Shown: positions 1-31,405 of the stretch, one piece after another
How the letters are laid out: every line of letters begins with the position of its first letter
Position numbering within the stretch: position 1 is the stretch's first letter
Origin: an uncultured bacterium
GTDB lineage: Bacteria; Krumholzibacteriota; Krumholzibacteriia; Krumholzibacteriales; Krumholzibacteriaceae
DNA length: 31,458 nucleotides
Direction of reading: 5' to 3'
NCBI GenBank assembly: GCA_965369375.1
Contig: CBDUQN010000031.1
Span: forward strand, 1-31,458
The notes under the pieces: model-generated
Told to the model about the DNA's origin: nothing
Database searches by the model: none
What the model saw: only the letters and a program-made list of their open reading frames with translations
Translations under genes and position numbers: made by a program

Positions 1-2
1 AT

Positions 3-306: not shown

Positions 307-334
307 TTTACAGGGAAACAAATTAGTCTATAAT
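307..334 (+). promoter_or_regulatory. Sigma-70-like promoter candidate upstream of the first S9 peptidase gene: TTTACA, 16-nt spacer, TATAAT.
   Basis: TTTACA at 307-312, a 16-nt spacer, then a perfect TATAAT at 329-334. AGGAG sits about 9 nt before the ATG at 385. This is sequence match only; the organism's true promoter consensus is unknown. Confidence 0.35.
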
Positions 335-384
335 CACGGGAACAAATGGTCACCCTTCACCTGCATCCGAAAGGAGCATCCTGG

Positions 385-2505
385 ATGAAACGCTTCCCTC
401 GGTCCACAGCTTCACTACCTGCGCTCATTGTTCTCCTAGCCGTTCTCACATTATCACTTCCGAATGATGCTGCGGCGTCCGGAATCTTTACCCCTGAGGA
501 TGCGCTGAGCCTCAAATACAGCTATTCGACTGCCATAAGCCCGGATGGAATGTGGGTCGCATACACGGTCTCTGTGCCACGCACGGCGGACGAAGATGCG
601 GGCTCCGGGTACAGCGAACTCTACCTCGTCTCGACAAAGACGGGAGAAACACGTCCCTTTATCACGGGAAAGGTCAATGTCAGCTCTCCCCGTTTCAGCC
701 CCGACGGCAAGCGGATCGCCTTCCTTACCCGGCGCGGGAAAAAGACCGAGAATCAGGTCTGGATGATCCCGGTCGACGGCGGCGAGGCGATCAAGGTGAC
801 GAGCGCAAAATCGAGCGTGTCCTCCTTCCGCTGGCATCCGGGAGGAGAAAAAATAGCCTATGTTGCAACGACGCCACAGTGCAGCCGGGAAAAAGAACTC
901 GATGAAAAGGGCTATGGATTCGTTTTTTACGAAGAGAATCTCAAACACAGAAATCTCTACATGATCGGGGTCGGAGAGGACGGCGGCGCCGGAGAGGCCG
1001 AGCTGCTCATCGAGGAAATTAGCGTCTGGAACTTTGAATTCAGCCCCGACGGCAAAACGATAGCAGCGGCGGTCTCGAAGAAAAACCTGATCGATCATAA
1101 CTATATGTTCAAGAAAATTCACCTGCTCGATATCACAACGAAAGAGCTCACCCAGCTCACGGACAATCCGGGAAAGCTCGGAAGTTACGCCTTCAGCCCT
1201 GACGGTAAGAAGATCGTCTACACCGCCGCGCTCGAGCGGAAAGACCATGCGGTGAGCCAGGTGTACGTGATCGATGTTTCCGGCGGTGAGCCGCTGAACC
1301 TGACGGAGCCCGGTTTCAAGGGCCACGTAGGCTGGGCCCGCTGGAAGGACAAGAAGAATGTTATTTACATCGGTGAAGAGGGAGCGTGGAATACGCTGAA
1401 TATCGTCAAAGCGAGCGGCGGCAAGCGTAAGATGATCCTGCATTCGAAGGATACCGGCGTTGTCTTTTTCTCGCCCGGTTTTGCCAAGGATCGCAAGCAT
1501 TTCGTTTTCATCTGCTCATCTCCCGAAGTTCCACGGGATGTCTACTACTGGCAGTACGGAAAGAAAACCCTGAAGCGACTCACAACGCTGAATCCGTGGA
1601 TCGCCGAGCGCACGCTAGGGAAACAGGAAGTGATCCGATACAAGGCGCGTGACGGCCTCGAGATCGAAGGAATCATCGTCTATCCCGTCGGCTACGAGGA
1701 AGGCGCGAAATATCCCCTGATCATGTGCGCCCACGGAGGACCGGAGTCCCACTATACGAACAGGTGGCTCACCGGTTACTTCAACTCCGCGCAAGTTTAC
1801 GCGGGAGAGGGATACGTCACCTTCTGCCCCAACTACCGTGCCAGCACCGGATACGGCGTCGAGTTCGCCCTCAGGGGGTACAAAGATGCGGCCGGTAAGG
1901 AGTTCGACGACATTGCGGACGGGATCGAATTCTTGATTTCGAAGGGAATCGCCGATCCGGATCGCATCGGCCTCGGTGGGGGCTCATACGGCGGATTCGC
2001 GGCGGCCTGGTTCGCATCTTACTACACAAAGTATGCTCAAGCGGTGTGCATGTTCGTCGGGATAAGCGATCTCATCAGCAAGCGCGGAACAACCGATATC
2101 CCATACGAGGAACTCTACGTGCATTCCGGAGAGCCCCTCGAACGGATGTGGGAACAGAATCTCAAACGAAGCCCGATCTATTGGGCTCACCAGAGCAAAA
2201 CAGCTGTTCTGATTCTCGGCGGCACCGCAGACCCGCGTGTGCACCCCTCACAGAGTCTCGAGTTCTACCGGCGCCTCAAGATGAACGATCACCCGGCCGT
2301 CAGGCTCGTCCAGTATCCCGGCGAGGGACACGGTAACAGGAAACAGCCCGGCAGGATCGATGTTTTGTACCGCCAGCTTCAGTGGTACAACTGGTACGTC
2401 CGGGACAAGAATCCACTCGGCGGCCCCATGCCGCCGTTCGATATCAGCGACCAATACGGACTCGAATTCGAAGAAGCGGAGAAAGAAGAAAAGAAAGACG
2501 AGTAA
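385..2505 (+). CDS. Secreted S9 family serine peptidase (prolyl oligopeptidase / acylaminoacyl-peptidase type). The N-terminal half is a TolB-like beta-propeller and the C-terminal half an alpha/beta hydrolase.
   Basis: MKRFPRSTASLPALIVLLAVLTLSLPNDAAASG reads as a signal peptide. Repeated SPDG(K/M)xIAF/VAY propeller blades follow. The nucleophile elbow is GLGGGSYGGF (GxSxG). The ATG at 385 has AGGAG about 9 nt upstream; the ORF track's alternative start is 346. Confidence 0.88.
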   Translation: MKRFPRSTASLPALIVLLAVLTLSLPNDAAASGIFTPEDALSLKYSYSTAISPDGMWVAYTVSVPRTADEDAGSGYSELYLVSTKTGETRPFITGKVNVSSPRFSPDGKRIAFLTRRGKKTENQVWMIPVDGGEAIKVTSAKSSVSSFRWHPGGEKIAYVATTPQCSREKELDEKGYGFVFYEENLKHRNLYMIGVGEDGGAGEAELLIEEISVWNFEFSPDGKTIAAAVSKKNLIDHNYMFKKIHLLDITTKELTQLTDNPGKLGSYAFSPDGKKIVYTAALERKDHAVSQVYVIDVSGGEPLNLTEPGFKGHVGWARWKDKKNVIYIGEEGAWNTLNIVKASGGKRKMILHSKDTGVVFFSPGFAKDRKHFVFICSSPEVPRDVYYWQYGKKTLKRLTTLNPWIAERTLGKQEVIRYKARDGLEIEGIIVYPVGYEEGAKYPLIMCAHGGPESHYTNRWLTGYFNSAQVYAGEGYVTFCPNYRASTGYGVEFALRGYKDAAGKEFDDIADGIEFLISKGIADPDRIGLGGGSYGGFAAAWFASYYTKYAQAVCMFVGISDLISKRGTTDIPYEELYVHSGEPLERMWEQNLKRSPIYWAHQSKTAVLILGGTADPRVHPSQSLEFYRRLKMNDHPAVRLVQYPGEGHGNRKQPGRIDVLYRQLQWYNWYVRDKNPLGGPMPPFDISDQYGLEFEEAEKEEKKDE

Positions 2506-2530
2506 TGAATCTCATTCGAAAGGAAGGTGC

Positions 2531-3772
2531 ATGATGAAAAAATCATCAGATACTATGTCGAGAAGATCCTTCCTTGGTCAAAGCGCTGCGTCCGTCATCG
2601 GCGCGGGGCTCGGTCTCGCCGGAACATCGAGCGTCCTCAAAGGTGGGCAGGCCGAGAGCGCACCGGGACAGGAGCCGGAGAAGTCAGGCGGGAAACCATA
2701 CATCAAGGAGTACCGGGAGCTCGGAAAGACCGGATACAAGGTTTCCGATATCTCCTTCGGTAACGGAAGGCTGCAGGATCCGGCCCAGCTCGAATACGCC
2801 ATCGAGCGCGGGATCAACTACGTCGACACCGCGCGCCAGTATTTCGATATGGAAGTCATCATCGGAAAGATCTTTCCCGCGAAGCGGGACAAGCTCTTCG
2901 TAACAACAAAACTCGAGCCGGAACTGGTAACGGCGACCGTTTCCGAAGCGGACCTGGCCAAGGGCATCGAGGAGAGCCTGCAGCGTCTCAATACCGATTA
3001 TATCGACTGCTGCCTCATACACTCGGTCGGCGATCCGAATCTCGGAGACCGGACACGCATCGAAAATCCGAATATCTACAGCGCGTTCGAAAAGGCGAAG
3101 AAGGCGGGGAAGATAAGGTTCTGGGGGGCAAGCTCACATGGCCCGAAGATGATCGAGGATTTCGACTGGCTCCTCGACAACACCGAAATCGACATGATCA
3201 TGCCGGGGATGAATCTCATGACAAAGGGGCTCGAACCGGTTCTGGCAAAGGCGAAAAAGAAAAGCGTTTCCATCGTCGCGATGAAGAGCCTCTCGGCCGC
3301 CCGCAAGATCGATTACTCGGATTATATGAAGGAGGGACGGACGGTCCGTCAGGCTGTAATCAAATGGATGCTCGCCCAGCCGAATATCGACACACTCTCG
3401 ATAACGATGGGGTCAATCGAGCAGATCGATGAGTACGTAGACATGTCGGGCAACTCCGGGCTCGGCCTCAACGAGAAGAAGATCCTCGAAAAATACGGAT
3501 CGCTCCTGGACCGTGACTATTGCAGACCCGGTTGCGACGGCTGCCTCGGCACCTGTCCGCACAACGTGCCTATACACGACATCCTGCGCTACCGGCTCTA
3601 CTTCAACAACTACGGACAAGAAAAGTACGCCATGAGCAAGTACGCACGTTTGCCGAAATCCCGGAATGCGACCATGTGCAGATCCTGCCCGGCACCGTGC
3701 GAAAGTCATTGCCCGTATAAACTGGCAATACGAACGAAACTCATCGACGCGCATTCGGAATTAACCGTTTGA
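2531..3772 (+). CDS. TAT-exported aldo/keto reductase family oxidoreductase with a C-terminal Cys-rich region resembling two 4Fe-4S binding motifs (COG1453-like).
   Basis: ATGATG at 2531 is preceded by GGAAGG. The N-terminus MMKKSSDTMSRRSFLGQSAASVIGAGLGLAG has a twin-arginine motif (SRRSFLG). An AKR core follows (GINYVDTARQY, CCLIHSV). The C-terminus carries CRPGCDGCLGTCP and CRSCPAPCESHCP. The gene lies 25 nt after the S9 peptidase stop. I rejected the upstream in-frame extension to 2360 because it overlaps the peptidase gene. Confidence 0.8.
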   Translation: MMKKSSDTMSRRSFLGQSAASVIGAGLGLAGTSSVLKGGQAESAPGQEPEKSGGKPYIKEYRELGKTGYKVSDISFGNGRLQDPAQLEYAIERGINYVDTARQYFDMEVIIGKIFPAKRDKLFVTTKLEPELVTATVSEADLAKGIEESLQRLNTDYIDCCLIHSVGDPNLGDRTRIENPNIYSAFEKAKKAGKIRFWGASSHGPKMIEDFDWLLDNTEIDMIMPGMNLMTKGLEPVLAKAKKKSVSIVAMKSLSAARKIDYSDYMKEGRTVRQAVIKWMLAQPNIDTLSITMGSIEQIDEYVDMSGNSGLGLNEKKILEKYGSLLDRDYCRPGCDGCLGTCPHNVPIHDILRYRLYFNNYGQEKYAMSKYARLPKSRNATMCRSCPAPCESHCPYKLAIRTKLIDAHSELTV

Positions 3773-3793
3773 TAGCCTGGGGAGGTTTTGAGA

Positions 3794-4591
3794 ATGAATC
3801 TCTTGAAGAGATATAAAAAGAACGGCGAGATAATCATTCCCATGCTCATCTGCGTCATATTCGTCCTTTCCGTATTACTGACCGGGTGTGCCAAGGAAGA
3901 AACCGATCCCGTCAAAGCGCTCGTTTCAAAATCAGTCAAGGCCCTCGGCGGTGCGAAGAGGGCTACGGCCTGGACAACGAGAACCGAAAAAGGTCTCTTT
4001 CAGACGACATGGCCGGGCTGGGGCGATTTGAACGCCGCATGTACACGATTGGTTAAAAAGCCGGACAAGCTAAAGATCGATCGCGACTTCAGCGCCTACG
4101 ACCACCCATTTTTCCAGACATACTTCTACAACGACGGCGAAGCATGGATGATCATCAATCTCAATACAAGGCAGTATCCCACCCTCGCTTCGAACCTGCA
4201 GGATTACCTCGAAAGCGTCGACGGTCTGCCATACTATTACACGGCATGTGACACATTCTTCCTGGAAACGACAATCCCCGACGACTCGCTCTTCGCCGGA
4301 TCAACGCTCGATCGGGTCGGTCTCATCCACGAGGGTGACACGATCTTCTACGATCTGGGTAAGCAGGACCACCTTCCCGCCAGGATCATCGAAAACGGCG
4401 GGAGCCGGCATACCATTCTCGAAGATTACCGGAAGGTGAGCGGCATGAAGGTGCCGTTCCATATCACCGTCTTTGAAAACGGGACAAAACAGGCCGAATA
4501 TACATGGGAAGAAATACAATTCAATAAAAAGATCGACGACAAGCTATTCGAGGAGGGACGTCCGGCGCCGCCGGACACCTCGTCGGGATAA
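3794..4591 (+). CDS. Lipoprotein of unknown function (lipobox LLTGC), possibly LolA-like in fold.
   Basis: GGAGG lies 8 nt upstream of the ATG at 3794. MNLLKRYKKNGEIIIPMLICVIFVLSVLLTGCAKEE is a signal peptide with Cys at the lipobox. The gene sits 21 nt after the AKR stop, consistent with the same operon. The LolA-like suggestion comes from my memory of that family, not from any search. Confidence 0.65.
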   Translation: MNLLKRYKKNGEIIIPMLICVIFVLSVLLTGCAKEETDPVKALVSKSVKALGGAKRATAWTTRTEKGLFQTTWPGWGDLNAACTRLVKKPDKLKIDRDFSAYDHPFFQTYFYNDGEAWMIINLNTRQYPTLASNLQDYLESVDGLPYYYTACDTFFLETTIPDDSLFAGSTLDRVGLIHEGDTIFYDLGKQDHLPARIIENGGSRHTILEDYRKVSGMKVPFHITVFENGTKQAEYTWEEIQFNKKIDDKLFEEGRPAPPDTSSG

Positions 4592-5573
4592 GCAGAGATC
4601 CAGCCATCAGTTGATGCGGTTCCGCCGGTCCTGATGTAAAATGGCGTGAGAGCCTCGGTACCCTGCAATCCCTTTTGCGATCCGGTCATCCTTTCGTCGA
4701 GTTCATCGAGAGACTGAATACGGAGCTCTCTCCCCGGACACGCAAGAAACTGATATCGAACCTTCTCGTGCGCGCGCGGCTCCTCAACAGAAAACATTGT
4801 GAAACGGCGAATAATGAATCATGCGTCGAGAAAAAGCACGTACCGATTGCGAAATGAGAAACCTGTCTTCCTCGTTGAGAAATGCAATTCCATTCGAATG
4901 GAATTCCCTGCGATGCTGTATGCTTCTCGATCGCTCCGAATTCTTCTTCAAAACTCTCGAGCTCCATCCTTCAAAATCGAACATTTCAGGCGAGGAGGAA
5001 AATCTCAAAGCGATGAAAGTCGACCTGACACATTACTCGAACGAGATGCGGGAAATCTACGATGAAGCGTGGGAACATGGGAACTGGCAATCACTTATCA
5101 GATCAATCTGGCGGGAAGTCGGCACCCGACCGTCCACGAGCTCCCTTTTGTCACGCTTCTTGCAAAAGTACCGGTGAAATCAGACAATAAATCCTTTGGT
5201 TGGCGCATTGTTTAATAAAAGACGGTTGGCAGTCCGGGATGAAACTCTGATCAGTTTCAACCCGAGGAATCGAGGATAATGACAGGGACTCTCAGTATTA
5301 AATTCAACAACGCAAGTCCAGACGGCGAGAAAGGAGCGTTGCACCATTGAAGCGCAGACCTAACTTGCATAAGAAGAAGAACAGTCGCTCAGCTTCACAA
5401 ACAAAAAGAAAAGTAAAATGCCGCGACGACAAATCCGATAGATGGTCAAAAAAATACGGACCGGTTCAAGCGTTGCTCGATGAAAAACATGATGATTACG
5501 GGAGGTAGATGCCGGCTACATTAGAAGGGAGAATACCCCGAAGATAAACCGCTCTGCTCCAGACATTCGACTA

Positions 5574-6695
5574 CTACTCCTGAAGCATGGTCATCATATT
5601 GATGACCTCCATCAGGTCACGTCTCGTGACGATTCCTACCAGACCCCCGTGCTCGTCGACTACCGGAATGCGCCCATGACCCTTCCTCATGATGAGTCGC
5701 AGCAGCGTCTCGGCCGGATCGGACGGATGCAGGGTGAACTCTCCTATTTTCCTGTCTATTACATCCCCGACCGTTGTCTCGCGCCATAGATCCCGTTCGA
5801 TCTGCTTGACATCCTTGAGTGATACCAATCCCGCCAATGCTCCGTTCTCGAGAACAGGAAACGAGCCGTAATGGTATTTCAAAAAGTAATCATCTACAAG
5901 GCTGCTCAGGGTCAAACTCGTATCAACGGTAATGACACCGGTGCGCATGATGTCTGCAACGCGCATGTGCCCAAGTGTCTCTTTGAAGGCGACCATGAGA
6001 TAGCCTGATTGAGCCGCCTGCCTCAAAAAGAAGCCGATGAACACGAGCCACAGGCCGTGAATCAGATTCCCATCAACGACAAAAACAAAGAGTCCGAGGA
6101 TCATGAGAAATGTCGCAAAGACGGTGCCGATCCGGCTGGAGATTTTCGTTGCCCGCCGCACATCGCCGGTTTTGTACCAGATCGCCGATCTCAGAATCCT
6201 GCCGCCATCGAGGGGAAATCCGGGTACGAGATTGAACAGAAGAACCATGACATTGATATAGGCGAGAAACCTGAAAATGACGGGGACAAACTCGACCTGC
6301 TCGAGCACGAGGGATAGGAGAAAAAACACCACGGCGAGCATGAGTGACATGAGCGGTCCGGCCGCAGCCATCTTGAACTCGAGGACGGGATCGTCCGACT
6401 CACGGTCCATCTGCGCGACACCACCGAACATGAAAAGGGTAATCTTCCTTATTGGAAGACCGCCTCTCGATGCAACCAGCGCATGGCTGAATTCGTGCAT
6501 CAGAATGGAGACGAAGAGCAGCATCGCCGTAATAAATCCGAGAATCCATCGCCCGGCCCCGAGCTCCGGGAATTCCAACGCATAGTAACCGTTGGCGAAT
6601 GTCCATGTGATCAGTGTCAGGACGAGAAGCCAGCTCACGTGCACCTCAACCGGTATACCCCATAAGCGGAACAATCGGATGCTCCTGCGAATCAT
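5574..6695 (-). CDS. Site-2 protease family (M50) zinc metallopeptidase with a C-terminal tandem CBS pair.
   Basis: HEFSHAL is an HExxH motif inside a polytopic membrane region. There are multiple TM segments. The C-terminal part (VADIMRTGVITV..., IPVVDEHGGLVGIVTRRDL) matches CBS motifs. GGAGA lies 4 nt upstream of the ATG at 6695. Confidence 0.85.
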   Translation of the reverse strand: MIRRSIRLFRLWGIPVEVHVSWLLVLTLITWTFANGYYALEFPELGAGRWILGFITAMLLFVSILMHEFSHALVASRGGLPIRKITLFMFGGVAQMDRESDDPVLEFKMAAAGPLMSLMLAVVFFLLSLVLEQVEFVPVIFRFLAYINVMVLLFNLVPGFPLDGGRILRSAIWYKTGDVRRATKISSRIGTVFATFLMILGLFVFVVDGNLIHGLWLVFIGFFLRQAAQSGYLMVAFKETLGHMRVADIMRTGVITVDTSLTLSSLVDDYFLKYHYGSFPVLENGALAGLVSLKDVKQIERDLWRETTVGDVIDRKIGEFTLHPSDPAETLLRLIMRKGHGRIPVVDEHGGLVGIVTRRDLMEVINMMTMLQE

Positions 6696-13528: not shown

Positions 13529-16198
13529 TCAGGGTCGCCGTCTCTTCGCACCCTCACCTTGTTCGAGAATGAAGTTTGATCTAAAGAGCGGATCTGCGGC
13601 CTGGAGTACCAGCAAGCGCAGCCTCTTCGGATAATCCGGATCTTTCGAGAGGAATTCTTCAACCGTTCTCACCGCTTCATCAGATGTATGATACCGCAAC
13701 GTGGCCTCGATCCAGTCCCTCGGAAAAAAAATGTTTCCGGTCCTGCGTATCTCTTCGAGAAGCTCCAGGCTCGGTTCGATATAATCCACCGCTGCTTCCA
13801 CCCTGAGGGGGTGATGCAGGTAGTACAGGGCCTCGAGAACCCATGGCTCGTGGCGCCTGTTTCCAACCTCGGACAACTCCCCGAAGAATGCATCTCTTTT
13901 ACCTTTATCGGCCGAAACGGCCCTTCGGACAAAGAGAAAGCGCGCCTTTAGCTCTTCATTTTCTATTCGTTCGTACTGATTATCCAGTATCTCATTCCAA
14001 CCGCCCGTCTCTCTCGCGGCGAGCTCGAGAGCTGCGGTGCAGTAATCTCTTTCGGAGAGAGTCAGACCCTCGATCTCACGTTCTCCCGACCAGATCTCCT
14101 TTACAAGACGTACCCCTTCTTCCGTCGAGACGATAGACTCGAATGCCTCGAAACATGCCGCCTTTGTCGACGCACAAGGCGAATTTTGCATCTTCTCGAT
14201 TAACAGTTCTTCGACCCCCGCAGCCAGCGCTTCTCGCTCCTCGTCGGCAATGAATTTCCAGAACGCCTCGGCGAGATAGCCGAGGAGGATCTGCAAGTTC
14301 AACTCCACCGTCTCCCGTTCGATCTCGGCGAGAAGCAACTGCAGGTACCGCAGAGGATCGCCGAAATGCTCTTCGAGGAGGTTATCCCTGAGAATCTGAA
14401 CGAATCGCGCCCGCTGAGCGGATGACTTAAATACGAGGTTCTCTGTGCCGAGCAGACGGACACTTTCTTTGTCGAGCTCGAAATAACCGAATCCGCGGCC
14501 GGTACCGTCCGGAAGCAGGAATACCTTCCCCCTCGCCGCATGATCAATAACGACAGAAGGGCCGACGAGATCGACGGGAATCACCGTTTGCTTCTTGCCC
14601 ATGTGATTGACAACAATATCGAACGCCTGCGGCCATACGAGGCCCCTCCCGAGAGGATCGCTCTGCGAAATTTCGAGACCACTGGGATTCCCATTCTTAT
14701 CGTAAATCCTCCGTATCGATATCGCGGGGCGCGCCCTTTCCATCACCCACGCCGTGCTCCATTCGACGAGGTCCACACCGGTCAGGGAATCGAGAATGCC
14801 AATGAGATCCTCCCACCGCGCATTGCCATAGCGATACGATTCCAAATACGTGGATAATCCTTCGCGCAGCCTATCCTCTCCCATCAATGCCTCGAGCTGG
14901 TTGAGCATCACCGGCGGTTTATGGTATATGATGTTCCCGTAGAGCGAACCTGCTTCGTTGAGGTTTGCCAACTCCTGCCGTATCGGGTGCGTGCCCCGCG
15001 TCCTCTCGACGTCATTGAGGGGATCGTAATGCGAAGCAACGAAGAGGAGCTCATGGCTCACGCCGGGGAAGGCGGAACGGATGATCCGGTCGGCCATGAA
15101 TTGCGCGAAAGCCTCCTTGAGCCAGACATCATCGAACCACGTCATCGTCACGAGATCGCCAAACCACATGTGCGCCGTTTCGTGGCTTATAACGGAAGCA
15201 CGCCGGAGGCGGTCGTGCTCGGTCGCACTCTCATCGAGCAGGAGACGTTCGGCCCGGTAGAGGATGGCGCCGGGATGCTCCATCCCGCTGTACGTGAAGG
15301 CAGGTATCACCACGATATCAAACTTGCCGAACGGATAGTCTATGCCCGTGTACTCCTCCATCCATCTGAGAGCCTCGGCGTGGAGATCGAAAATCGCCCC
15401 CGCGTTTCGAGTTACTTTCGCCGAATCCGGTTCGAGGTGGAACATCCTCATGTTACGTTCGCCGATTGCACCTTCTTCCACCAAGAACTTCCCCGCGGCA
15501 AAGGAAAAAAAGTAGGTGCTGAGCGGCTCGGTCGTTTCAAAGAGCACATTCTTGCGCGTCCCCTTCTCGTGAACACGGCTCTCGAGAATATCCGCGTTTG
15601 ATACCGCACGCCAATCATGGGGAATATCGAGCGCCAGGGCGTAACGGGCCTTGATGTCCGGCTGATCGAAACACGGAAAGGCGAAACGGGCGCGATCGGG
15701 AACGAAAAGGGTGTAGAGATAGTTCTCTTCCCTGTGGAGCGGCCCCTCGTCCGGAATGAAGAGAATTTCAAAAGTGTTTCTGCCCAGTTTAAGATTCCCG
15801 GGCTCGATAAGGATATGCTCGTTCTCGAACAGAAACGGAACCTCCCCGCCGCGAGTCCTGACCGACTCGACTTCCCTGCCGGCAAAATCTATCACCAACG
15901 GCCCACCGACGTAGTCGAGTTCGAACCGCAGCTCCGCCCGGCCCCGGATCTCTCTCCCCTGCTCTATGGAAAACCCCAGCGAATAGCGCACCTCCGAGAT
16001 TGTTCGGGACCGTTCCCGGGCGACAACGTGCGGCACTCCCTTTTCAATGGCGCTTTCAGCCCGTGCAGTAACCCTTGCGAAGCTTTCAGCCGGCGCGGGA
16101 GCTCTCACGGTGCATGCAGCCCCCGGCGCCTCCAGCGCTGGATAACAAACAAAAACCAAGGCGGTTACCATCACCATTGTCGCGGTACCGATACGCAT
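13529..16198 (-). CDS. Secreted M1 family zinc aminopeptidase (aminopeptidase N-like) with a large C-terminal helical domain.
   Basis: There is an N-terminal signal peptide. The exopeptidase motif is GMEHPG, and the zinc site is HETAHMWFGDLVT...WLKEAF (HExxH-x18-E). Confidence 0.88.
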   Translation of the reverse strand: MRIGTATMVMVTALVFVCYPALEAPGAACTVRAPAPAESFARVTARAESAIEKGVPHVVARERSRTISEVRYSLGFSIEQGREIRGRAELRFELDYVGGPLVIDFAGREVESVRTRGGEVPFLFENEHILIEPGNLKLGRNTFEILFIPDEGPLHREENYLYTLFVPDRARFAFPCFDQPDIKARYALALDIPHDWRAVSNADILESRVHEKGTRKNVLFETTEPLSTYFFSFAAGKFLVEEGAIGERNMRMFHLEPDSAKVTRNAGAIFDLHAEALRWMEEYTGIDYPFGKFDIVVIPAFTYSGMEHPGAILYRAERLLLDESATEHDRLRRASVISHETAHMWFGDLVTMTWFDDVWLKEAFAQFMADRIIRSAFPGVSHELLFVASHYDPLNDVERTRGTHPIRQELANLNEAGSLYGNIIYHKPPVMLNQLEALMGEDRLREGLSTYLESYRYGNARWEDLIGILDSLTGVDLVEWSTAWVMERARPAISIRRIYDKNGNPSGLEISQSDPLGRGLVWPQAFDIVVNHMGKKQTVIPVDLVGPSVVIDHAARGKVFLLPDGTGRGFGYFELDKESVRLLGTENLVFKSSAQRARFVQILRDNLLEEHFGDPLRYLQLLLAEIERETVELNLQILLGYLAEAFWKFIADEEREALAAGVEELLIEKMQNSPCASTKAACFEAFESIVSTEEGVRLVKEIWSGEREIEGLTLSERDYCTAALELAARETGGWNEILDNQYERIENEELKARFLFVRRAVSADKGKRDAFFGELSEVGNRRHEPWVLEALYYLHHPLRVEAAVDYIEPSLELLEEIRRTGNIFFPRDWIEATLRYHTSDEAVRTVEEFLSKDPDYPKRLRLLVLQAADPLFRSNFILEQGEGAKRRRP

Positions 16199-16304
16199 GG
16201 CGCCCCTTTCAAGACGTTGGGATAAAAGTCACCCGATTCGAGCCCGTCTCACTTCGCTGATAGTGTAGCGGTACAGGATTCCCATATCCAGAAACATTTC
16301 ACAT

Positions 16305-16320
16305 TGGCATTTAGTTTGCT
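16305..16320 (+). promoter_or_regulatory. Sigma-54 (RpoN) type -24/-12 promoter candidate, about 95 nt upstream of the SPFH operon.
   Basis: TGGCAT-ttagt-TTGCT matches the consensus TGGCAC-N5-TTGCW at 14 of 16 positions. The invariant GG and GC are present and correctly spaced. It is oriented toward the + strand operon that starts at 16415. Confidence 0.5.
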
Positions 16321-16414
16321 GTTCACTGGATTGGATAATTTACCTGCAAGAATTTCAATCATTTGCATCTAGAGGTACGTGCACAAATCGAAGAGGTAAG
16401 ACTGGAGGCCGAAT

Positions 16415-17560
16415 ATGTCACAATTCATGGAAGTGTTGGAGTGGTTTGACCTTACAGGAGAAGAGATCGTCCACAGGATTCCGCCGGAAGGCTCCGCCGA
16501 GATCAAGATGGGCGCCCAGCTCGTGGTGCGTGATAATCAGTCAGCGGTCTTCTTCAAGGACGGCAAAGGGCTCGATATATTTTGCCCCGGCCGCCACACG
16601 CTCACCACGAAGAATCTCCCGATCCTGACAAAGATGCTCGCCCTTCCATGGGGTTACAAGAGCCCCTTCCGGACCGAGGTCTACTTCGTGAACCTGAAAA
16701 CGTTCCTCAACCAGAAGTGGGGAACAAAGGATCCCGTGGCGTTCAAGGACAGCAAGCTCGGCCTGGTGAGGCTGCGCGCATTCGGAATCTACACTCTGAA
16801 AATCACCGAGCCGGTTCTTTTTATCAATACCGTCGTCGGAACGCAGGGCGTATACACGAGTGAAATGATCGGCAACTATCTGAGAGACGTCATTGTCGCC
16901 AGGATCAACGATCTTTTCGGCGAGAAGCTCGATTCCATATTCGAGCTCCCGCAGTTCTACGACGAACTCGCTATCGAGATCAAGGAACGGCTCGTCAACG
17001 ACTTCGAAAAATACGGAATGGAGCTTATCGATTTCTTTATAAATTCGATCACTCCCCCAGCCGAAGTTCAGAAGATGATCGACGAGAGAAGCGGCCTTCA
17101 GGCCGTCGGCGACCTCGACCGCTTTTTCAAGTTCAAAGCCGCCAAGGCGATGGGTGATGCGGCATCGAGCGGCGGCGCGGGAGGCGCAGGCGCGGCTGCC
17201 GCCGGCGGCATGGGCATCGGGGTGGGCGCCGGACTCGGCATGATGATCCCCGGCATGCTCGCCCAGACCATACAGGGCGGAAGTACCACGACCAAGGAAC
17301 AGTTGCAGTGTCCCAAGTGCCACAACGAAGTTGCGCCCGATTCCCGCTTCTGCAAGAACTGCGGCACGCAGCTCGTTGTCATGAACCGGTGCCCCGAGTG
17401 CCAGACCGAGCTTCCCGCGGAGGCAAGGTTCTGCTCCAGCTGCGGGAAGAAGCTCGGTGAAACCCTCAGCTGTCCGCATTGCGACACGAAGCTTCCTCCC
17501 GGAACGAAATTCTGCACGAGCTGCGGGGAGAAAGTGGAAAAAGAGGACGATGCAGGTTAG
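16415..17560 (+). CDS. SPFH/Band-7 family protein of the YdjI-like subgroup (Band_7_1), with a Gly/Ala-rich linker and three tandem C-terminal zinc-ribbon motifs.
   Basis: GGAGG lies 6 nt before the ATG. The N-terminal 240 aa match my recollection of B. subtilis YdjI ([67 protein letters not shown]). [24 protein letters not shown] linker follows. The three zinc ribbons are CPKC...CKNC, CPEC...CSSC and CPHC...CTSC. Confidence 0.85.
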
Positions 17561-18251
17561 ATGTAGCCTCTGCGGCGGGGAAAACAATATCCATCCGGGG
17601 CAGGAGATGCTCTTCTGCTCCTACTGCGGCTCCGCACTCGCGCTGAAAGATAAGGCCGGTCCCGAACATCTGATTCTTCCCCACAAGCGAAACGACAAAT
17701 CGGCTGTGGAAGCGCTCGGCTCCTTTTTCCTGAGCAGAAACAGGGCCCATCCGCGGGAAATGGAAGCGGAATTCTCCTACGTTCCCTACCTGGTGATTGA
17801 GGGCGAAAACGAGCGTACCGTTACGATCCCAGCCCTCAAGAATTCCGTGCTCTTCGATCCGATCCCCTTTCCGCCCGCGGGAAGTTATCGTTTCTTCGAT
17901 GAGAAATTCGCCGAAAACGAGAAGATCCAGAAGATCGAAAAAACCGAGGACGGTGTCCTGCGCATCCTGCACCTCCCCGTCTACCTGGTTCGCTATAAGT
18001 CGGGGAAATGGAGCGGCACCGCGATGGTTATCGGAGAGAGCTGGCAGGTGGTCACCGACGATCTCCCGCCGGAGCGGGCCGTCTCGCTCGATATGCCGCG
18101 CATCCTTGCCGCATTCGGCCTCTTCGTCGTGTTTCTATTCCTCGGCAGAGCCGTTTCGAGCTGGTCGGCACGCCTCTTTCTCCTGTTCGGTGCTTCAGCG
18201 TTCGGTTTCGCCATATTGAGCCTGCGTGACAAGTTGGTGAAGAAGACATGA
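17550..18251 (+). CDS. Zinc-ribbon membrane protein: an N-terminal C4 ribbon and a C-terminal two-helix TM hairpin. It is a paralog of the next two genes.
   Basis: The ATG at 17550 overlaps the upstream stop by 11 nt, consistent with translational coupling. The protein begins [32 protein letters not shown]. The C-terminal hydrophobic stretch is [15 protein letters not shown]...[17 protein letters not shown]. Confidence 0.7.
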
Positions 18252-19294
18252 GTGACGTGGACATACAGGTCGAAGAATCCGCGATCGGTGCGTCCGGCGC
18301 ATCCGCACCGGCAGAAAAAGCGGATTCTCCATCCGAAACATACGGGGCTACCTGCCCCTCGTGCGGCGGTTCGCTGCGTATTCGCGAGGGAGAGAGAAGC
18401 ATCCGGTGCACGTACTGCGATTCCGCCCTCTACATCGCGAGACCGAAGGGTGTGCGGAGTTTTATGCTGCCTCCGAAGATCTCGGCCGGCAGGGCGCGGA
18501 TGACGGCACTCCGGTATCTCTCCGAACAGACCGGGGGCAGGGTGAAAGGACGCCATGCGTCGATTGTCGATCTGCAGCTCATTCACGTTCCCTTCTGGAG
18601 AATGCACGGCCGCCTGATGGGATGGGTATGCGGGGACAGGATCAATTTAAAGGAAGTCGAGGTCGTCTCGGAAGTCGGCGATGCCCGGCATTCGATCAAG
18701 TCGCTGCAGGAGGAGCGAATTCCCTATGCAAAACTCGTATTCAAAAAGGTCGACTGGAGCACACCCGCCTGCGTGCTCCCGTACCTCGGCATACAGGGCA
18801 TAAGCCTGCGATCCTCGTTTATCAACTGGGATATTTTCGACCATAAAATGAGAACGAAGAACAAGTTCGCTCTCCCCATGAAAAGCGTACAAAACGCGCA
18901 AAAAGACGCGTTCAATTATCTCACAAAGCTTACAACGCCGCACAAGTCGACGGTGCTGGGGAGCAAGTTCCACATGTTCGATCGCAATTTCTCACTCTAC
19001 TACTATCCCGTTTACTTCATCTGCTACCGTCATAACAAGAGAATATACACGATCACGATAGACGCCAACGACGGCCGCATCGCGCGCGGCGATGTGCCGC
19101 GGTTCACCAAGACAAACTACAGGAAGTTATTCTTCGTTCCGGCCGCTTTCGCATTCCTCGCCGGCACGTACCTGCCGCTCGCGTTTATTGCGCTCGTGAT
19201 CGTCTATGCAGCCGACGTATTCAGCAGCGAGGGATTCATTCTCCCGCACCGGTGGCTTCTCGGGCGCCTGAACAAGTGGTTTGGAGGTGAATGA
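18248..19294 (+). CDS. Zinc-ribbon membrane protein: an acidic/Ala-rich N-terminus, a C4 ribbon, and a C-terminal TM hairpin. It is a paralog of the flanking genes.
   Basis: It shares an ATGA start/stop overlap with the upstream gene. The ribbon is CPSCGGSLRIREGERSIRCTYCDSALYI. The conserved core has HVPFWRM. The C-terminal TM stretch is FFVPAAFAFLAGTYLPLAFIALVIVYAADVF. Confidence 0.75.
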   Translation: MSDVDIQVEESAIGASGASAPAEKADSPSETYGATCPSCGGSLRIREGERSIRCTYCDSALYIARPKGVRSFMLPPKISAGRARMTALRYLSEQTGGRVKGRHASIVDLQLIHVPFWRMHGRLMGWVCGDRINLKEVEVVSEVGDARHSIKSLQEERIPYAKLVFKKVDWSTPACVLPYLGIQGISLRSSFINWDIFDHKMRTKNKFALPMKSVQNAQKDAFNYLTKLTTPHKSTVLGSKFHMFDRNFSLYYYPVYFICYRHNKRIYTITIDANDGRIARGDVPRFTKTNYRKLFFVPAAFAFLAGTYLPLAFIALVIVYAADVFSSEGFILPHRWLLGRLNKWFGGE

Positions 19295-19297
19295 GAT

Positions 19298-20122
19298 ATG
19301 GACGACGGATTCATCGTTAAGCCACTGAAATGCAACCACTGCGGGCACCAACTTCCCGTCATGGGACAATTCGTCACCTTTCAATGCACAACCTGCTTCA
19401 ATTACTGGGTATTGACGCCGGAGGGATTGGCCCCGATAACCGTCTACCGGGCGATTCACGATGCAGACATCGAGCAGGAACCCCTCTATCTCCCCTTCTG
19501 GGCAATTGCGGTAGACAGCGATTCGTACCGTAAACAGATGGAAGTGATCACCGGAGAGCTCCAGAAGGTAAGCCAGGCGATCATCAACACTAATATACAA
19601 CTGGAAGACGATCAGATCGAGCGCCTGGCAAGCTGCAATCCCGACCTGGACATAGGACTCATAAAAACATCCATCGTATGCGAGGCGAGCACGACGAAAA
19701 AGATACCGTCGAGCAGCGAGATCAATTACTTGCTGAGCAGGATACGCGGAACGGCGACGTATCTTATTTACGTCCCGGCCTTTCAGTCCCGGAATACCTT
19801 CACGTATCTCAAGGTCGGACGTCTCCTGACGAAACGCCAGCCGTCGTTCAAGATCGAGAAATCGCGCGGTCTCGGGCACCGCATCCTCTGCGCGCTCCAG
19901 GCCGATGAGGCGGTCGCGCTCATGGATTTCATCTTTATCGCCACGCTGCCCGATTCAATCCAGCAGAACGGGGACTTTCTTAAAGATATTCACATAGAAC
20001 CTGACGGCTCCCCGAGACTCATCGAGTTTCCATTCGAGCACCGCGGCACTCATCTCCTGTGCCTCTTGGGCAACTTCACCATCTCCAGGCGTCTCGTCGA
20101 CGGGCTGCCGAGAGTGTATTGA
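19298..20122 (+). CDS. Soluble zinc-ribbon protein, the third and most diverged paralog, with no TM segment.
   Basis: GGAGG lies 10 nt upstream of the ATG, which is 3 nt after the upstream stop. The ribbon is CNHCGHQLPVMGQFVTFQCTTC. The YLPFWAIA motif matches the HVPFW / YVPYL motifs of its paralogs. Confidence 0.7.
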   Translation: MDDGFIVKPLKCNHCGHQLPVMGQFVTFQCTTCFNYWVLTPEGLAPITVYRAIHDADIEQEPLYLPFWAIAVDSDSYRKQMEVITGELQKVSQAIINTNIQLEDDQIERLASCNPDLDIGLIKTSIVCEASTTKKIPSSSEINYLLSRIRGTATYLIYVPAFQSRNTFTYLKVGRLLTKRQPSFKIEKSRGLGHRILCALQADEAVALMDFIFIATLPDSIQQNGDFLKDIHIEPDGSPRLIEFPFEHRGTHLLCLLGNFTISRRLVDGLPRVY

Positions 20123-20358: not shown

Positions 20359-20907
20359 CTAGAACGCGACGCCGACGTTGATCAGCCGGATCGTCGGCAG
20401 TGTCAGGGCGACATCCTCGAGGTCACCGCCGAAGATCCGTACCGCCCCGACACCGAGGCTGACATTGAATCTTCTGCTCTCGCCGAGCAGCCAGCCGTAC
20501 CCGATATCTATGCCGAATCCGTAGAAGTTGCCCGTTCCTCTCTCTTGCTCGTCCTCATCCCAAGCATCTACATAATATAATCCAAAGCGCGCGCCGAAGA
20601 AGAATCCGGCGAAAGCATCATTCTGTGGATAGTACCGGTAGAAACCTGCAAAGCTCTTGAATTCTTCTTTCTCGGTGTCCTCGTCACCGCCGATAGAGAT
20701 GTACGATCCGGCCACTCCAACGGTGCTGTGCGAAGCGATCTTGACTTCCACTTCACCGTTCCACCAGGTGAACATATCAAGGATCGGATTCGTGGAGACA
20801 ACTACCTTTCGTTCCACCTTCCCTTCCTGACCGACCGCCGCGGACGCATTCAACAACATGAAGGCGACAAGCATGCAAGCCAATAACAGTGGCCGCTGGA
20901 TTCTCAT
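20359..20907 (-). CDS. Small outer membrane beta-barrel protein (DUF3575-like, about 180 aa).
   Basis: MRIQRPLLLACMLVAFMLLNASAAVGQE is a signal peptide. The protein has alternating Gly/aromatic beta-strands and a C-terminal NVGVAF ending in Phe. Confidence 0.65.
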   Translation of the reverse strand: MRIQRPLLLACMLVAFMLLNASAAVGQEGKVERKVVVSTNPILDMFTWWNGEVEVKIASHSTVGVAGSYISIGGDEDTEKEEFKSFAGFYRYYPQNDAFAGFFFGARFGLYYVDAWDEDEQERGTGNFYGFGIDIGYGWLLGESRRFNVSLGVGAVRIFGGDLEDVALTLPTIRLINVGVAF

Positions 20908-21139
20908 GACCGCTCCTTTCGTCTGTGCCCCTCGCAGCAAACTCATTCGACCAACGCTAATTGCATAAGTTAAACAGGGAAGCGTGGACTCACGTCAAGT
21001 GTTTTTTATTCGGAAAACGGTTCCCCGCATGCGGATTCGAAGCAATTTCTTCCCGGAAAAAAGGAGTCGGCGCCGCAGGTGCCGAGAAGCGCCATGAAGG
21101 GCGACCCGCGGCACGCTTCTTCAGTCCAGATGTAGCTGT

Positions 21140-22549
21140 TTAGTTTTTTCCGATGATGAAATTCCAGAGCAGGAGAGGCAAAGCGTGGAGTGGTTTAAAT
21201 GTTTCCCGCCACAGCTTGGAAGCAATAAATTGCATCATCCCCGGGAATACTCTGTAAACCGTACGCCCATTCTCGAACCCTTTTTTCGGTCTCAGATAAA
21301 AAGACATGTAAGCCCAAAGGAGGTATCTGTTCACCTGGTGGGTTGTCAGGTTATCGAGCTTTATTACCGGGTCGAGGGCGGTGAACATCCCCCAGTTGCG
21401 GGTCAGAAGACGGTTACGCACCTTTTCGTAGAGTTTCGTTCCGGGGTAAGGGGTCAGAATCGAGAATTGAACCTTGACGGGATTGAGGGACTTTGCAAAG
21501 TTGATCGTTTCCATCATCGTACGCTTGGTCTCGTTGGTTGCGCCGAGAATGAAAGCTCCCGTTACCTTTATGCTGTTTTCATTGAGAATCTCCATAGCCC
21601 GCACGGCATCGCAGAGAAGCGCCTTCTTGTTGTATCCATCGAGCACTTCCTGACTGCCGCTCTCGAATCCGAGAAAGGTCCACCTGAATCCACCCTTCGC
21701 CATCGCTCCAACCATCCCGGGATTCTTCACAATGGTATCGACCCTCGACCATGCCTCCCATATGAGGTCCCACCCTTTCGCGTGTATCCGTTCGGCCAGC
21801 CGAACTGCCCGGTCGGGATCCAGCGTGAAGTTGTCTTCGGTAAAACAGAGTGCCCGGTAGCCGTATTTCTTGTAGAGCAACTCCACCTCTTCGAGGATGC
21901 TCTCGACCGATCTCGAACGCCAGCGCACGCCAAAGAACTCCGATGAAGCGCAGAAATCACAATTGAAGGGACAGCCTCTCGACGTCACGAGTGTCGTCAT
22001 CGGGCGGCCGTTCAATTTTTCGTTGTATAGATCGAGGGACAAAAGATCCCGTGCCGGAAAGGGAAGAGAATCCAGATCATCGATGAATGGTATATCGGGG
22101 CTTCTGTCTATATTTCCATTGTTTCGATACGAAACGCCCCTCACATCTTCAAAGGGCAGTTCACGCGATAAAAAACCAACCAGCGAATGGAATGCATATT
22201 CACCTTCGTTGCGCACGACATAGTCCACCACACCGCTCTCGAGAGTCTCCTCGTCCAGAAAACTGACATGAGGACCTCCCGTCACAACGATGGCGCCTTG
22301 TTGTTTGGCCCGACGGGCGATCTCGAGGGAAACGGGATACCGCGCGGTGTCTACCGAGATGCCTACAATATCAAATTCGTTGTATGGATAATTTTTCCAG
22401 TTGTGCTTTCCGACATTGAAATCAACGATCCGCACCCGGTGCTTGTCTATCAATACAGAGGCCAGGTATGCCAGGCTGAGTGGTGGTCTTCTGATACCTA
22501 TATTGTAATACGAAAACCCGGCGGGCGGATTAACCAGTAGGATATTCAT
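21140..22549 (-). CDS. Cobalamin-binding (B12-binding) domain radical SAM enzyme (class B) of unknown substrate.
   Basis: The N-terminus is a B12-binding Rossmann-like module (MNILLVNPP..., VVTGGPHVS). It is followed by CPFNCDFC (CxxxCxxC) and a radical SAM core. The ATG at 22549 is my choice; the ORF track extends to 22687 but would overlap the upstream gene. Confidence 0.8.
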   Translation of the reverse strand: MNILLVNPPAGFSYYNIGIRRPPLSLAYLASVLIDKHRVRIVDFNVGKHNWKNYPYNEFDIVGISVDTARYPVSLEIARRAKQQGAIVVTGGPHVSFLDEETLESGVVDYVVRNEGEYAFHSLVGFLSRELPFEDVRGVSYRNNGNIDRSPDIPFIDDLDSLPFPARDLLSLDLYNEKLNGRPMTTLVTSRGCPFNCDFCASSEFFGVRWRSRSVESILEEVELLYKKYGYRALCFTEDNFTLDPDRAVRLAERIHAKGWDLIWEAWSRVDTIVKNPGMVGAMAKGGFRWTFLGFESGSQEVLDGYNKKALLCDAVRAMEILNENSIKVTGAFILGATNETKRTMMETINFAKSLNPVKVQFSILTPYPGTKLYEKVRNRLLTRNWGMFTALDPVIKLDNLTTHQVNRYLLWAYMSFYLRPKKGFENGRTVYRVFPGMMQFIASKLWRETFKPLHALPLLLWNFIIGKN

Positions 22550-22574
22550 TGATGAGCCCGAGCCTTTGTCGATA

Positions 22575-22874
22575 TTAGAAGTGCCTCTGGCCTCCACCTC
22601 CACCTCGTCTTCCTCCACCCCTGCGATTATCGCTTCGTGGGCGAGCCTCGTTGACGGTGAGCGTGCGACCCTTGAAATCCTTCTCATTCAAGCCTTCGAT
22701 GGCGGCTTTGGCTTCGTCATCATTAGGCATTTCCACGAAGCCGAATCCCTTCGACTGATCGGTATATCTGTCCTTGATCGTAACCGCACTGAATACCTGG
22801 CCGAAGGATTCAAATGCTTGCCGAATCTCGTCTTCGGTCACATCATACGGCAAATTACCCACATACAGTTTCAT
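22575..22874 (-). CDS. Small RNA-binding protein with a single RRM domain and a Gly/Arg-rich tail.
   Basis: AAGGAGAT lies 6 nt upstream of the ATG at 22874. The RNP-2 motif is LYVGNL and the RNP-1 motif is KGFGFVEM. The C-terminus is RRGGGRRGGGGG. Confidence 0.85.
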   Translation of the reverse strand: MKLYVGNLPYDVTEDEIRQAFESFGQVFSAVTIKDRYTDQSKGFGFVEMPNDDEAKAAIEGLNEKDFKGRTLTVNEARPRSDNRRGGGRRGGGGGQRHF

Positions 22875-23320
22875 AGTGATCTCCTTGTAGCGCCTTGCCG
22901 GTTTTGGATTCACTAAAATACGGCCTTAGGAAGAAAAAGTCATTTAAAGCCTCTGATAGAGATGACGAACGAGGAAAGAATAGCTTATCGTCTTTACGCG
23001 GATTTTAAACAAATTCAATCCTAACTACTTCCTTCGGCAGCTCAAGTATACAAAATTGCCTATCGAGTGCAAGCAATTGTTTATCGGGAGCTGAAATTGG
23101 CTCAGCGCGTTCATAATTGTTTTAGAATAGGCCTAATTGATTATATTACAACTATTAAAGAATCCCTCTGTTTCCGTTGAAGTCTGTTCTCTCACTCCTT
23201 CGTGGGCCGGGGGATTTCGAATGAAAAAATCCTTGATTCTCACTATTTTGCAGCTCTTGCAATTTTCTCGAGAAAATGGCATTTTCTCAATACACATTTT
23301 CAAGGACACGGAGAATAAAA

Positions 23321-24094
23321 ATGAGAACGCGGCTCATACCAATAAGCATCCTGATTCTTGCAGCGGTTTTACTTATGCCAAATCCTTGCGACGGCCCCCG
23401 CGCCGCGCAAGAAAAGCCCACCGGCATCGACGAATCGTCTCTCGATATCAGGATTTTCAGATTTATTAACGGTTCGATAGTAAATCCGGCATTCGATTGG
23501 CTCATGCCGTTCGTCACAGAGCTGCGAAGATGGAGGGTTTTTCTCATACTCGTCTGGTGCTGGCTCGTTCTCTTCGGAAAAACAAAGGGGCGCTGGGCGG
23601 CGCTGATGCTCATACCGCTCATTGCCGCCTCGGATCAATTGACCGCCGCCGTTATCAAACCGATCACCGAGCGGCTTCGGCCCTGCGAGGTGCTCGGAAA
23701 CATCCACTTCTGGCACAGCGTGAACGGATGGATATGGACGCCGGCCGATGTGGTGGGAGGTTTCAAAACATCCCACTCGTTTCCGTCGACCCACGCCGCA
23801 AACATCACTTCTTCGATGCTCTTTCTGAGTCTCGTATACAGACGGTGGGTCTATTATGCCTGCCTGCCCATCGCCGTTCTCGTTTCATTCTCGAGGATAT
23901 ACAACGGGGTACACTGGCCATCAGACGTTGTCGTGGGGATCCTCGTCGGCGCCGCTCTCGCCTGGATCGGGTATGCGATCTTCAAACGGGCGTATAGGGA
24001 AAAGAGGGCCGAACAGATACCGTCCGCCCCCGCGGCGGGGCCGGGCGGTGCGCAGATACCTGATACGGAACCGAGCACAGACACGGACACTTGA
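23321..24094 (+). CDS. PAP2 family membrane-associated phosphatase with a signal peptide.
   Basis: The three PAP2 motifs are present: KPITERLRP (KxxxxxxRP), PSTHAAN (PSGH-like) and SRIYNGVHWPSDVV (SRxxxxxHxxxD). GGAG lies about 10 nt upstream of the ATG at 23321. Confidence 0.8.
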   Translation: MRTRLIPISILILAAVLLMPNPCDGPRAAQEKPTGIDESSLDIRIFRFINGSIVNPAFDWLMPFVTELRRWRVFLILVWCWLVLFGKTKGRWAALMLIPLIAASDQLTAAVIKPITERLRPCEVLGNIHFWHSVNGWIWTPADVVGGFKTSHSFPSTHAANITSSMLFLSLVYRRWVYYACLPIAVLVSFSRIYNGVHWPSDVVVGILVGAALAWIGYAIFKRAYREKRAEQIPSAPAAGPGGAQIPDTEPSTDTDT

Positions 24095-30901: not shown

Positions 30902-31405
30902 TTATTTATTAAGCAAGTCTTTCTGCGTTCTCAGCGCAAAGCTCTTTCCGTCTATCGCGCGCTGAACGGCGAGAATTCCAGCGAGATGATCGCACTCGTG
31001 CTGGAGCAGCTCCGAGAGATCACCGTCGAGATCCATCGAGCATTCATTCCATTCGTTATCACGAAACTCGAGCCTGAATTTCTTGTGCCGCCGCACCTTG
31101 ACGAGCAGATCCGGGAAACTCATGCAATCGTCCCAGAGCTCGACCATTTCTTCGCTTGCATTCTTTATGACCGGATTGATAAAGATGGCCGGTTTGTCTG
31201 TGTGCATGTAAAAGAGTTTCTTCTTGACGCCGATTTGGGGAGCCGCGATCGCTCTGCCATAACCATAACGCCCCCTGAAATCCATCATTGTATCGTGCAG
31301 GTCGTCCACAACCATTTTCATCGGCTCGAGCTCATCCTGTTCGACCTCGGACGCAACGTCGTAGAGAGTGGGATTGCCGAGTAGCAGAATCTCACGAATA
31401 GCCAT
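30902..31405 (-). CDS. def: Peptide deformylase.
   Basis: All three PDF motifs are present: GRAIAAPQIG (motif I), DDCMSFPD (motif II, an EGCLS variant with the Cys conserved) and QHECDHLAG (motif III, HExxH). Confidence 0.88.
   Translation of the reverse strand: MAIREILLLGNPTLYDVASEVEQDELEPMKMVVDDLHDTMMDFRGRYGYGRAIAAPQIGVKKKLFYMHTDKPAIFINPVIKNASEEMVELWDDCMSFPDLLVKVRRHKKFRLEFRDNEWNECSMDLDGDLSELLQHECDHLAGILAVQRAIDGKSFALRTQKDLLNK

Follow-up and report, generated by a model that had tools for sequence, protein, structure and literature searches.

The closest described relative of the locus treated here is the pspA-ydjGHI operon of Bacillus subtilis (renamed pspA-samGHI), whose expression depends on sigma-W and is induced by envelope stress. 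Of this SPFH subfamily, only the protein of that operon, YdjI (SamI), has been studied, and its interpretation has centered on the link to PspA. In B. subtilis, soluble YdjI requires both YdjG and YdjH to form foci at the membrane; two-hybrid assays show a contact between YdjG and YdjH, and contacts of YdjH with both YdjI and PspA (PMC8581546). According to Ravi et al. (2024, PMC11237479), YdjG combines zinc ribbons and a transmembrane (TM) segment with an NTF2-like domain related to that of YpeB. SamI is predicted to form a higher-order oligomer, and SamGHI displays phenotypes that are independent of PspA (bioRxiv 10.64898/2026.02.06.704340). The present analysis concerns a four-gene cassette (g1 to g4) found in a 31,458-nucleotide (nt) stretch of DNA, termed the window, from an uncultured bacterium of the Krumholzibacteriaceae (contig CBDUQN010000031.1). 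The cassette is a rearranged and expanded form of the YdjI-YdjG (SamI-SamG) module, i.e. a widespread variant and not a wholly new system, and its homology to that module is held with high confidence.

The two loci have in common a soluble Band_7_1 SPFH (flotillin-like) protein whose linker is rich in Gly/Met and whose C-terminus carries a zinc ribbon (YdjI/SamI, corresponding to g1). They also share a type of protein in which a YpeB/PepSY-like domain lies between a zinc ribbon and a C-terminal TM segment (YdjG/SamG, corresponding to g3 and g2). The genes are tightly packed and co-transcribed in both. Unlike pspA-ydjGHI, the window cassette has neither pspA nor the gene for the TPM-domain protein YdjH/SamH. 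The SPFH gene is first in the window cassette and last in pspA-ydjGHI, and two full-length YdjG-like paralogs with a soluble derivative (g4) are found where pspA-ydjGHI has one YdjG-like gene. The number of ribbons differs as well: the window YdjG-like proteins have one and YdjG has two, while g1 has three and YdjI one.

The genes of the cassette and the region in front of it are listed below; position numbers here and throughout are those of the whole window.

16199–16414, + strand: 5′ intergenic region, common to g1 and the divergent M1 aminopeptidase gene; presumed promoter site
16415–17560, + strand: g1, 381 amino acids (aa); stop codon TAG at 17558–17560
17550–18251, + strand: g2, 233 aa; ATG at 17550
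18248–19294, + strand: g3, 348 aa; stop codon TGA at 19292–19294
19298–20122, + strand: g4, 274 aa; ATG at 19298

The four + strand genes are tightly packed and form an operon. An earlier reading of the DNA, made from the letters alone (the sequence-only reading), had described the junctions as an 11-nt overlap, a 4-nt overlap and a 3-nt gap, and this is exact according to the open reading frame calls and a direct reading of the junctions: the g1 stop codon lies inside g2 (11 nt), g2 and g3 share the ATGA at 18248–18251, and a spacer at 19295–19297 separates g3 from g4. The same four products are present in independent gene calls on a public contig that carries the same DNA. The mechanical open reading frame of g2 opens at a GTG at 17457, upstream of the ATG at 17550; the latter start is preferred because of the independent gene calls (233 aa) and the conserved N-terminus of the orthologs, MxVRCxLCGG. 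The start of the cassette had been placed at 16305, 110 nt ahead of the g1 start codon. Because the g1 stop-to-stop frame opens only at 16400, positions 16305–16414 are untranslated leader or promoter DNA. A GGAGG is found 9 nt before the g1 ATG. A promoter and terminator scan gave zero sites like the sigma-70 consensus and no convincing terminator, and Rfam yields no match across the whole window.

g1 displays a Pfam match to Band_7_1 (PF13421) with an E-value of 4.6e-63 and 213 bits, against a cutoff of 24. As a reference for the B. subtilis group, the pspA-ydjGHI locus of Bacillus stercoris (L008) was used, located via a primer sequence printed in PMC8581546. BLASTP aligns g1 with the B. 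stercoris YdjI over its full length (residues 2–321) with 26% identity and an E-value of 8e-34. The features of g1 are:

16490–17098, + strand: SPFH (Band_7_1) domain, residues 26–228 (Pfam)
17207–17257, + strand: Gly/Met-rich linker, glycine-zipper-like, residues 265–281
17309–17524, + strand: three C-terminal C4 zinc ribbons, residues 299–370, with six CxxC motifs and Pfam Zn_Ribbon_1 and DZR matches

The sequence-only reading of g1 as a YdjI-type SPFH protein extended by three zinc ribbons is borne out by these matches. It had further taken the possession of ribbons by the SPFH protein as a difference from the Bacillus system; this does not hold, as YdjI also ends in a zinc ribbon. Among g1 orthologs the ribbon number varies from one to three, independently of the count of partner genes downstream. 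A hydropathy scan shows no hydrophobic or TM segment in g1, which is a cytoplasmic SPFH protein of the YdjI (SamI) family without a membrane anchor. The segment at residues 265–281 is nearly invariant in orthologs from Krumholzibacteria, Geobacter, L013, L036 and L037, and has a mean hydropathy of about 1.5, slightly below the TM threshold. It corresponds to the “low-complexity region” reported for YdjI (PMC8581546) and may be an element of direct membrane contact or of oligomerization.

The three genes that follow, g2, g3 and g4, reach no Pfam, NCBIfam or PADLOC threshold, ribbon families included. Each product has a C4 ribbon near its N-terminus, as had been noted from the letters, and alignments show the four cysteines to be invariant or nearly so in each family. 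The parts of g2 (from Kyte-Doolittle hydropathy and the ortholog alignment) and of g3 are:

17562–17627, + strand: g2, C4 ribbon, followed by a compact core
18096–18224, + strand: g2, two C-terminal hydrophobic helices
18353–18418, + strand: g3, C4 ribbon, preceded by a disordered N-terminus
18455–19090, + strand: g3, two PepSY/YpeB-like alpha+beta units
19127–19213, + strand: g3, hydrophobic anchor
19244–19282, + strand: g3, amphipathic C-terminal helix

Hydrophobic anchors are found in g2 and g3 only, and are C-terminal in both. A C-terminal TM hairpin had been proposed for each of them. This fits the two hydrophobic segments of g2, but the hydropathy scan shows in g3 a single stretch of about 29 hydrophobic residues with a conserved Pro at its center, which could form either one TM helix or a re-entrant hairpin.

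The paralogy of g2 and g3 extends over their entire length. Between the two, BLASTP gives an E-value of 1e-7; an hhalign comparison of g2 with the g3 family gives 99.4% probability and E = 1.6e-21, and with a wide g3-family profile 99.75% and E = 2.5e-27 over 229 columns, the hydrophobic tail included. The alignment of g2 with YdjG itself (hhalign 96.3%, E = 1.9e-9) covers the N-terminal 88 columns. For g3, a narrow profile made from Krumholzibacteria only gives a probability of 45%–58% against YdjG, whether sequence or profile, and this over a 47-column motif. Searched by HMMER with the narrow profile, 1.84 billion cluster representatives yielded 1527 relatives, 253 of them below 1e-10, and the wide g3 profile consists of 64 sequences from HMMER searching of these representatives. 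With the wide profile, the comparison to the YdjG family profile gives 98.9% and E = 1.4e-17 over 262 columns, and the alignment spans YdjG residues 51–338, i.e. from the second ribbon through the TM segment. The link between g3 and YdjG is clear only with the 64-sequence profile, since the narrow one is too weak.

The core fold of g3 matches YpeB/PepSY (NTF2/PepSY-like), with no match to Pfam PepSY at the sequence level. Known PepSY domains are mostly extracytoplasmic. Unlike those of PepSY/YpeB/YpmB proteins, the g3 domain is predicted to be cytoplasmic because it sits between a cytoplasmic zinc ribbon and the anchor. The single ribbon of g3 reaches no family threshold, whereas the two of YdjG match PF08271 (Zn_Ribbon_TF) at 1.8e-12. 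g2 displays full-length homology to the g3/YdjG family, including the C-terminal anchor. g2 and g3 are YdjG homologs in which a zinc ribbon and PepSY/NTF2-like domains, predicted to be cytoplasmic, precede a hydrophobic anchor at the C-terminus. The sequence-only reading had allowed for the cassette being simply a rearranged ydjGHI locus; this applies to half of it, in that profile-profile comparison and fold both identify g2 and g3 as homologous to YdjG over the full length, but YdjH has no counterpart.

The named close homologs of g3 are all labeled Candidatus Krumholzibacteriota except two (Patescibacteria group and Bacteroidales), and those in Krumholzibacteriota have 44%–80% identity to the g3 of the window. 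In public databases, proteins of the g3/YdjG family have been labeled automatically as, for example, “DNA-directed RNA polymerase subunit RPC12/RpoP”, “ribosomal protein S27AE/L37AE”, “TFIIB-type zinc ribbon-containing protein”, “Replication restart DNA helicase PriA” and “Phage replication protein”. These names reflect the zinc ribbon only and are misleading; for the partner proteins of the SPFH gene (RpoP/RPC12, TFIIB-type and ribosomal S27AE) they are corrected here. A profile scan for related loci gave 49 loci, about 20 of which match through the ribbon only. In L044–L063, which are rumen and gut metagenome contigs, the g3/YdjG profiles find proteins of about 400–700 aa, most of them near 600 aa, at no better than 1e-7 to 1e-13; the matches lie mainly in the ribbon region, and these proteins have no SPFH neighbor.

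The product of g4 is the most divergent of the three. Its parts are:

19331–19396, + strand: g4, C4 ribbon
19493–19501, + strand: g4, PFW strand
19517–19696, + strand: g4, variable helical-hairpin insertion
19745–20086, + strand: g4, C-terminal alpha/beta domain, no recognized fold

By hhalign, g4 matches g2 (90.6%), the wide g3 profile (96.6%) and YdjG (92.1%), with the alignments limited to the first 70–80 residues or so, which hold the C4 ribbon and a strand with an invariant P-F-W. The mutual homology that had been claimed for g2, g3 and g4 is thus full-length for g2 and g3, but for g4 it is confined to the ribbon and PFW segment. No TM segment is found in g4 by the hydropathy scan, and nothing in the PDB, PepSY domains included, matches its C-terminal domain. 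g4 is a derived soluble paralog that shares the ribbon and PFW module only, and is not a member of the YdjG family proper.

The set is inherited strictly together: orthologs of all four proteins recur in the same order, with frames that overlap or abut, in at least three phyla; the orthology of g2 and g4 across loci is seen in alignments and in hidden Markov model (HMM) scores. The presence of the four-gene order on many unrelated contigs shows that the cassette is more than a chance arrangement. In Krumholzibacteria it is found in L002–L006, L016, L018, L022, L025 and L029, and in L002, L003/4 and L005/6, to which another dozen metagenomic contigs can be added, the cassette is the same; in these three the flanks differ. 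Geobacter sulfurreducens has the cassette (L011/L012) with products of 358, 239, 325 and 217 aa. Further cassettes are present in L013 (an unassigned metagenome-assembled genome, MAG), L036 (a distant metagenomic lineage) and L067 (a Bacillota MAG). The sequence-only reading had placed the module in a bacterium of the FCB group; as its conservation in G. sulfurreducens and in the Bacillota MAG shows, it is not peculiar to one such bacterium. Krumholzibacteriota, which presumably belong to the FCB superphylum, are placed directly under Bacteria in the NCBI taxonomy.

Variants of the cassette are also found. In L014, L037 and L038 the SPFH gene is followed by a single gene for a fusion of about 490 aa, made up of a g3-like and a g4-like part, and the g3-like half has no TM segment. 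A lone g3-like plus g4-like fusion of 481 aa is present in a Deltaproteobacteria bacterium (L015:8001–9446, CP070692.1), with no Band_7_1 gene within 8 kb. In the Firmicutes-like contigs L041–L043 and L064 the gene order is SPFH-YdjG-TPM or SPFH-YdjG. As in the window, the SPFH gene comes first, a YdjG-type gene is directly next and no PspA is detected; unlike the window, there is a single YdjG gene of the Bacillus subtype, often with a TPM gene, and no equivalent of g2 or g4. The SPFH-first order, which had been presented as an inversion, is thus true of this locus but is not distinctive. That the arrangement is possibly undescribed is in agreement with the searchable literature, where no description of the four-gene order or of the g4 family was found; two comparative papers on Psp systems treat, in the portions of their text available, the Firmicute ydj operon only.

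PspA/IM30 (PF04012) is absent from the window and from about 6 kb past its right end, according to the Pfam tables and an HMM of Bacillus PspA, which agrees with the earlier statement that no pspA is present in the window. A TPM-domain (YdjH) gene is likewise absent from the window and from these 6 kb. YdjH is a TPM-domain protein (TPM_phosphatase match at 1.1e-23). It was considered as a relative of g2, g3 and g4 and was ruled out, as it is a TPM protein and gives no alignment to g3. The Bacillus PspA HMM gives no match in any non-Bacillus locus, and PspA was seen in Bacillus loci only. Neither PspA nor the TPM protein YdjH appears to be obligatory; both would be lineage-specific additions of Bacillus-type operons. 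The pairing of SPFH and YdjG is the conserved core; it is found without pspA or TPM in at least three phyla, one of them represented by the genetically tractable G. sulfurreducens, and in those phyla the core has been expanded to two anchored paralogs and a soluble derivative, the latter fused to the anchor type in some lineages. The cassette therefore offers a handle on the function of Band_7_1 SPFH proteins alone and on their mode of membrane tethering.

By analogy with YdjI and YdjG, g2 and g3 would be tail-anchored in the inner membrane with their ribbons and PepSY-like domains in the cytoplasm, and may recruit or tether an oligomeric g1 to the cytoplasmic leaflet. g4 is a candidate soluble adaptor or cap that would bind g3. 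An association of g3 with g4 is suggested by the natural fusion of g3-like and g4-like proteins, a classical indicator of a physical or functional link. Together g1 to g4 would form a sub-membrane SPFH scaffold that may act in the sensing or buffering of membrane stress or in the organization of membrane patches. That YdjG-like, tail-anchored proteins tether an SPFH scaffold beneath the membrane is considered the probable overall picture, and for the tethering mechanism itself the chances appear close to even.

Several points weigh against this picture. The mechanism is carried over from a homolog of 26% identity in the case of g1 and from profile-level similarity only in the case of g2 and g3. 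The direct two-hybrid partner of YdjI is YdjH, not YdjG (PMC8581546), and YdjH is absent here. The topology of the g3 anchor, as described above, is ambiguous. Some fusion-type relatives have no TM segment, and the lone fusion in L015 has no SPFH neighbor. In addition, the inspected span is about 37 kb around the cassette, and PspA may be encoded at another site of the genome.

The last point leads to a different reading, namely that the cassette is the anchoring half of a Psp-type system in which g1 recruits a PspA/IM30 protein encoded elsewhere, so that it would not be independent of PspA. PspA foci in B. subtilis need YdjI (PMC8581546), and Ravi et al. suggest that operons without PspA may use PspA homologs from elsewhere (PMC11237479). 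The same paper gives the conserved partner of PspA as the TPM protein, not the band-7 protein, and a TPM protein is lacking in the window. Moreover, more than 15 independent cassettes, drawn from at least three phyla, all lack PspA within 6–8 kb, and the PspA-independent phenotypes of SamGHI (bioRxiv 10.64898/2026.02.06.704340) also speak against an obligatory role of PspA. Recruitment of a distant PspA is judged unlikely, although it deserves to be kept in view. From gene neighborhood alone, we infer that the cassette may work without PspA.

A second alternative is that g2 and g3 are stress-signaling sensors with the SPFH protein as a brake, the output being gene expression and not a scaffold. 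This follows the model of a 2026 preprint, which proposes that SamI restrains signaling by SamGH (bioRxiv 10.64898/2026.02.06.704340), and the zinc ribbon and PepSY-like cytoplasmic domains could well be interaction or signaling modules. Signaling in that model depends on SamH, however, the TPM protein that the window does not have, and no transcription factor, kinase or output domain is present in the cassette or conserved beside it. A purely signaling role thus appears improbable.

An anti-phage defense or mobile accessory system built around the SPFH protein would also take the form of a compact, translationally coupled operon of mostly uncharacterized zinc-ribbon proteins, with flanks that differ between genomes, as seen here. 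PADLOC nevertheless gives nothing below an E-value of 0.06, and a tblastn search of 72,556 plasmids and 50,697 phage records with g3 yields nothing. The guanine-plus-cytosine content of the cassette matches its surroundings, there are no integrase or transposase neighbors, and the identities of g3 within Krumholzibacteriota given above are as expected for vertical inheritance. With the PADLOC, plasmid and phage searches all negative, this highly improbable reading is rejected. The least credible reading, that g2, g3 and g4 are nucleic-acid-binding proteins, has in its favor the TFIIB-type, RPC12/RpoP and S27AE/L37AE names of relatives and the Zn_Ribbon_TF match of YdjG, but these labels stem from a ribbon of about 25 residues, the remainder being a PepSY-like fold and membrane anchors, the invariable partner is an SPFH membrane-scaffold gene, and all three proteins are below every Pfam ribbon threshold. 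Both the defense or mobile-element reading and the nucleic-acid-binding reading are effectively excluded.

The favored picture of a tethered sub-membrane scaffold shares its logic with the stomatin/QmcA-NfeD (YbbK-YbbJ) and HflK/C-FtsH operons, in which an SPFH scaffold is encoded together with one or more dedicated membrane partners, which it organizes. The stomatin/QmcA and HflK/C proteins carry membrane anchors of their own and either face the periplasm or surround a protease. In contrast, the SPFH protein of the window is unanchored and its partners are YdjG-like; no NfeD or protease domain match was found in g2, g3 or g4. A bolder proposal, possible but on the whole doubtful, is that the cassette represents an ancient and self-sufficient sub-membrane machine, distributed across bacterial phyla. 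Heteromeric YdjG-like proteins would be the family of dedicated partners of Band_7_1 SPFH proteins, as NfeD is of stomatins, g4 would be an adaptor with a new fold, PspA and TPM would have joined later in Firmicutes, and the core function of YdjI/SamI would be independent of the ESCRT-III-like PspA.

A conserved, all-helical protein of about 169 aa is encoded immediately upstream of the SPFH gene in several cassettes from outside Krumholzibacteria (L013:4614–5123, L014:4752–5261, L036:3066–3638 and L067:4717–5226). It displays the motifs PGxxxY(K/R)(D/E)(R/K)ExRR and R(Y/F)AxYGYxG(F/L)FD, matches no Pfam family and shows no similarity to PspA/Snf7 (Pfam). Neither the window nor Geobacter encodes it, and it may be a fifth, optional component.

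The neighbors of the cassette in the window are:

13529–16198, − strand: M1 aminopeptidase, divergent, upstream of the cassette
20359–20946, − strand: DUF3575 outer-membrane beta-barrel-like protein
21140–22687, − strand: B12-binding radical SAM enzyme

The cassettes of other genomes have none of these three genes as conserved neighbors. Coverage of the window by the public ENA contig NODE_34 begins at about position 6028 (positions 1–6027 are not covered), and the deformylase call of this contig is 101 aa, compared with 167 aa in the window (30902–31405); the window thus stems from another assembly, of the same organism or one nearly identical to it. A gene for a PAP2-family phosphatase is found downstream of the cassette in three Krumholzibacteria loci (window 23276–24094, L002:9814–10593 and L005:10689–11582), and in L002 it follows g4 directly. 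The proximity of the PAP2 gene could represent plain lineage synteny or a lipid-related link.

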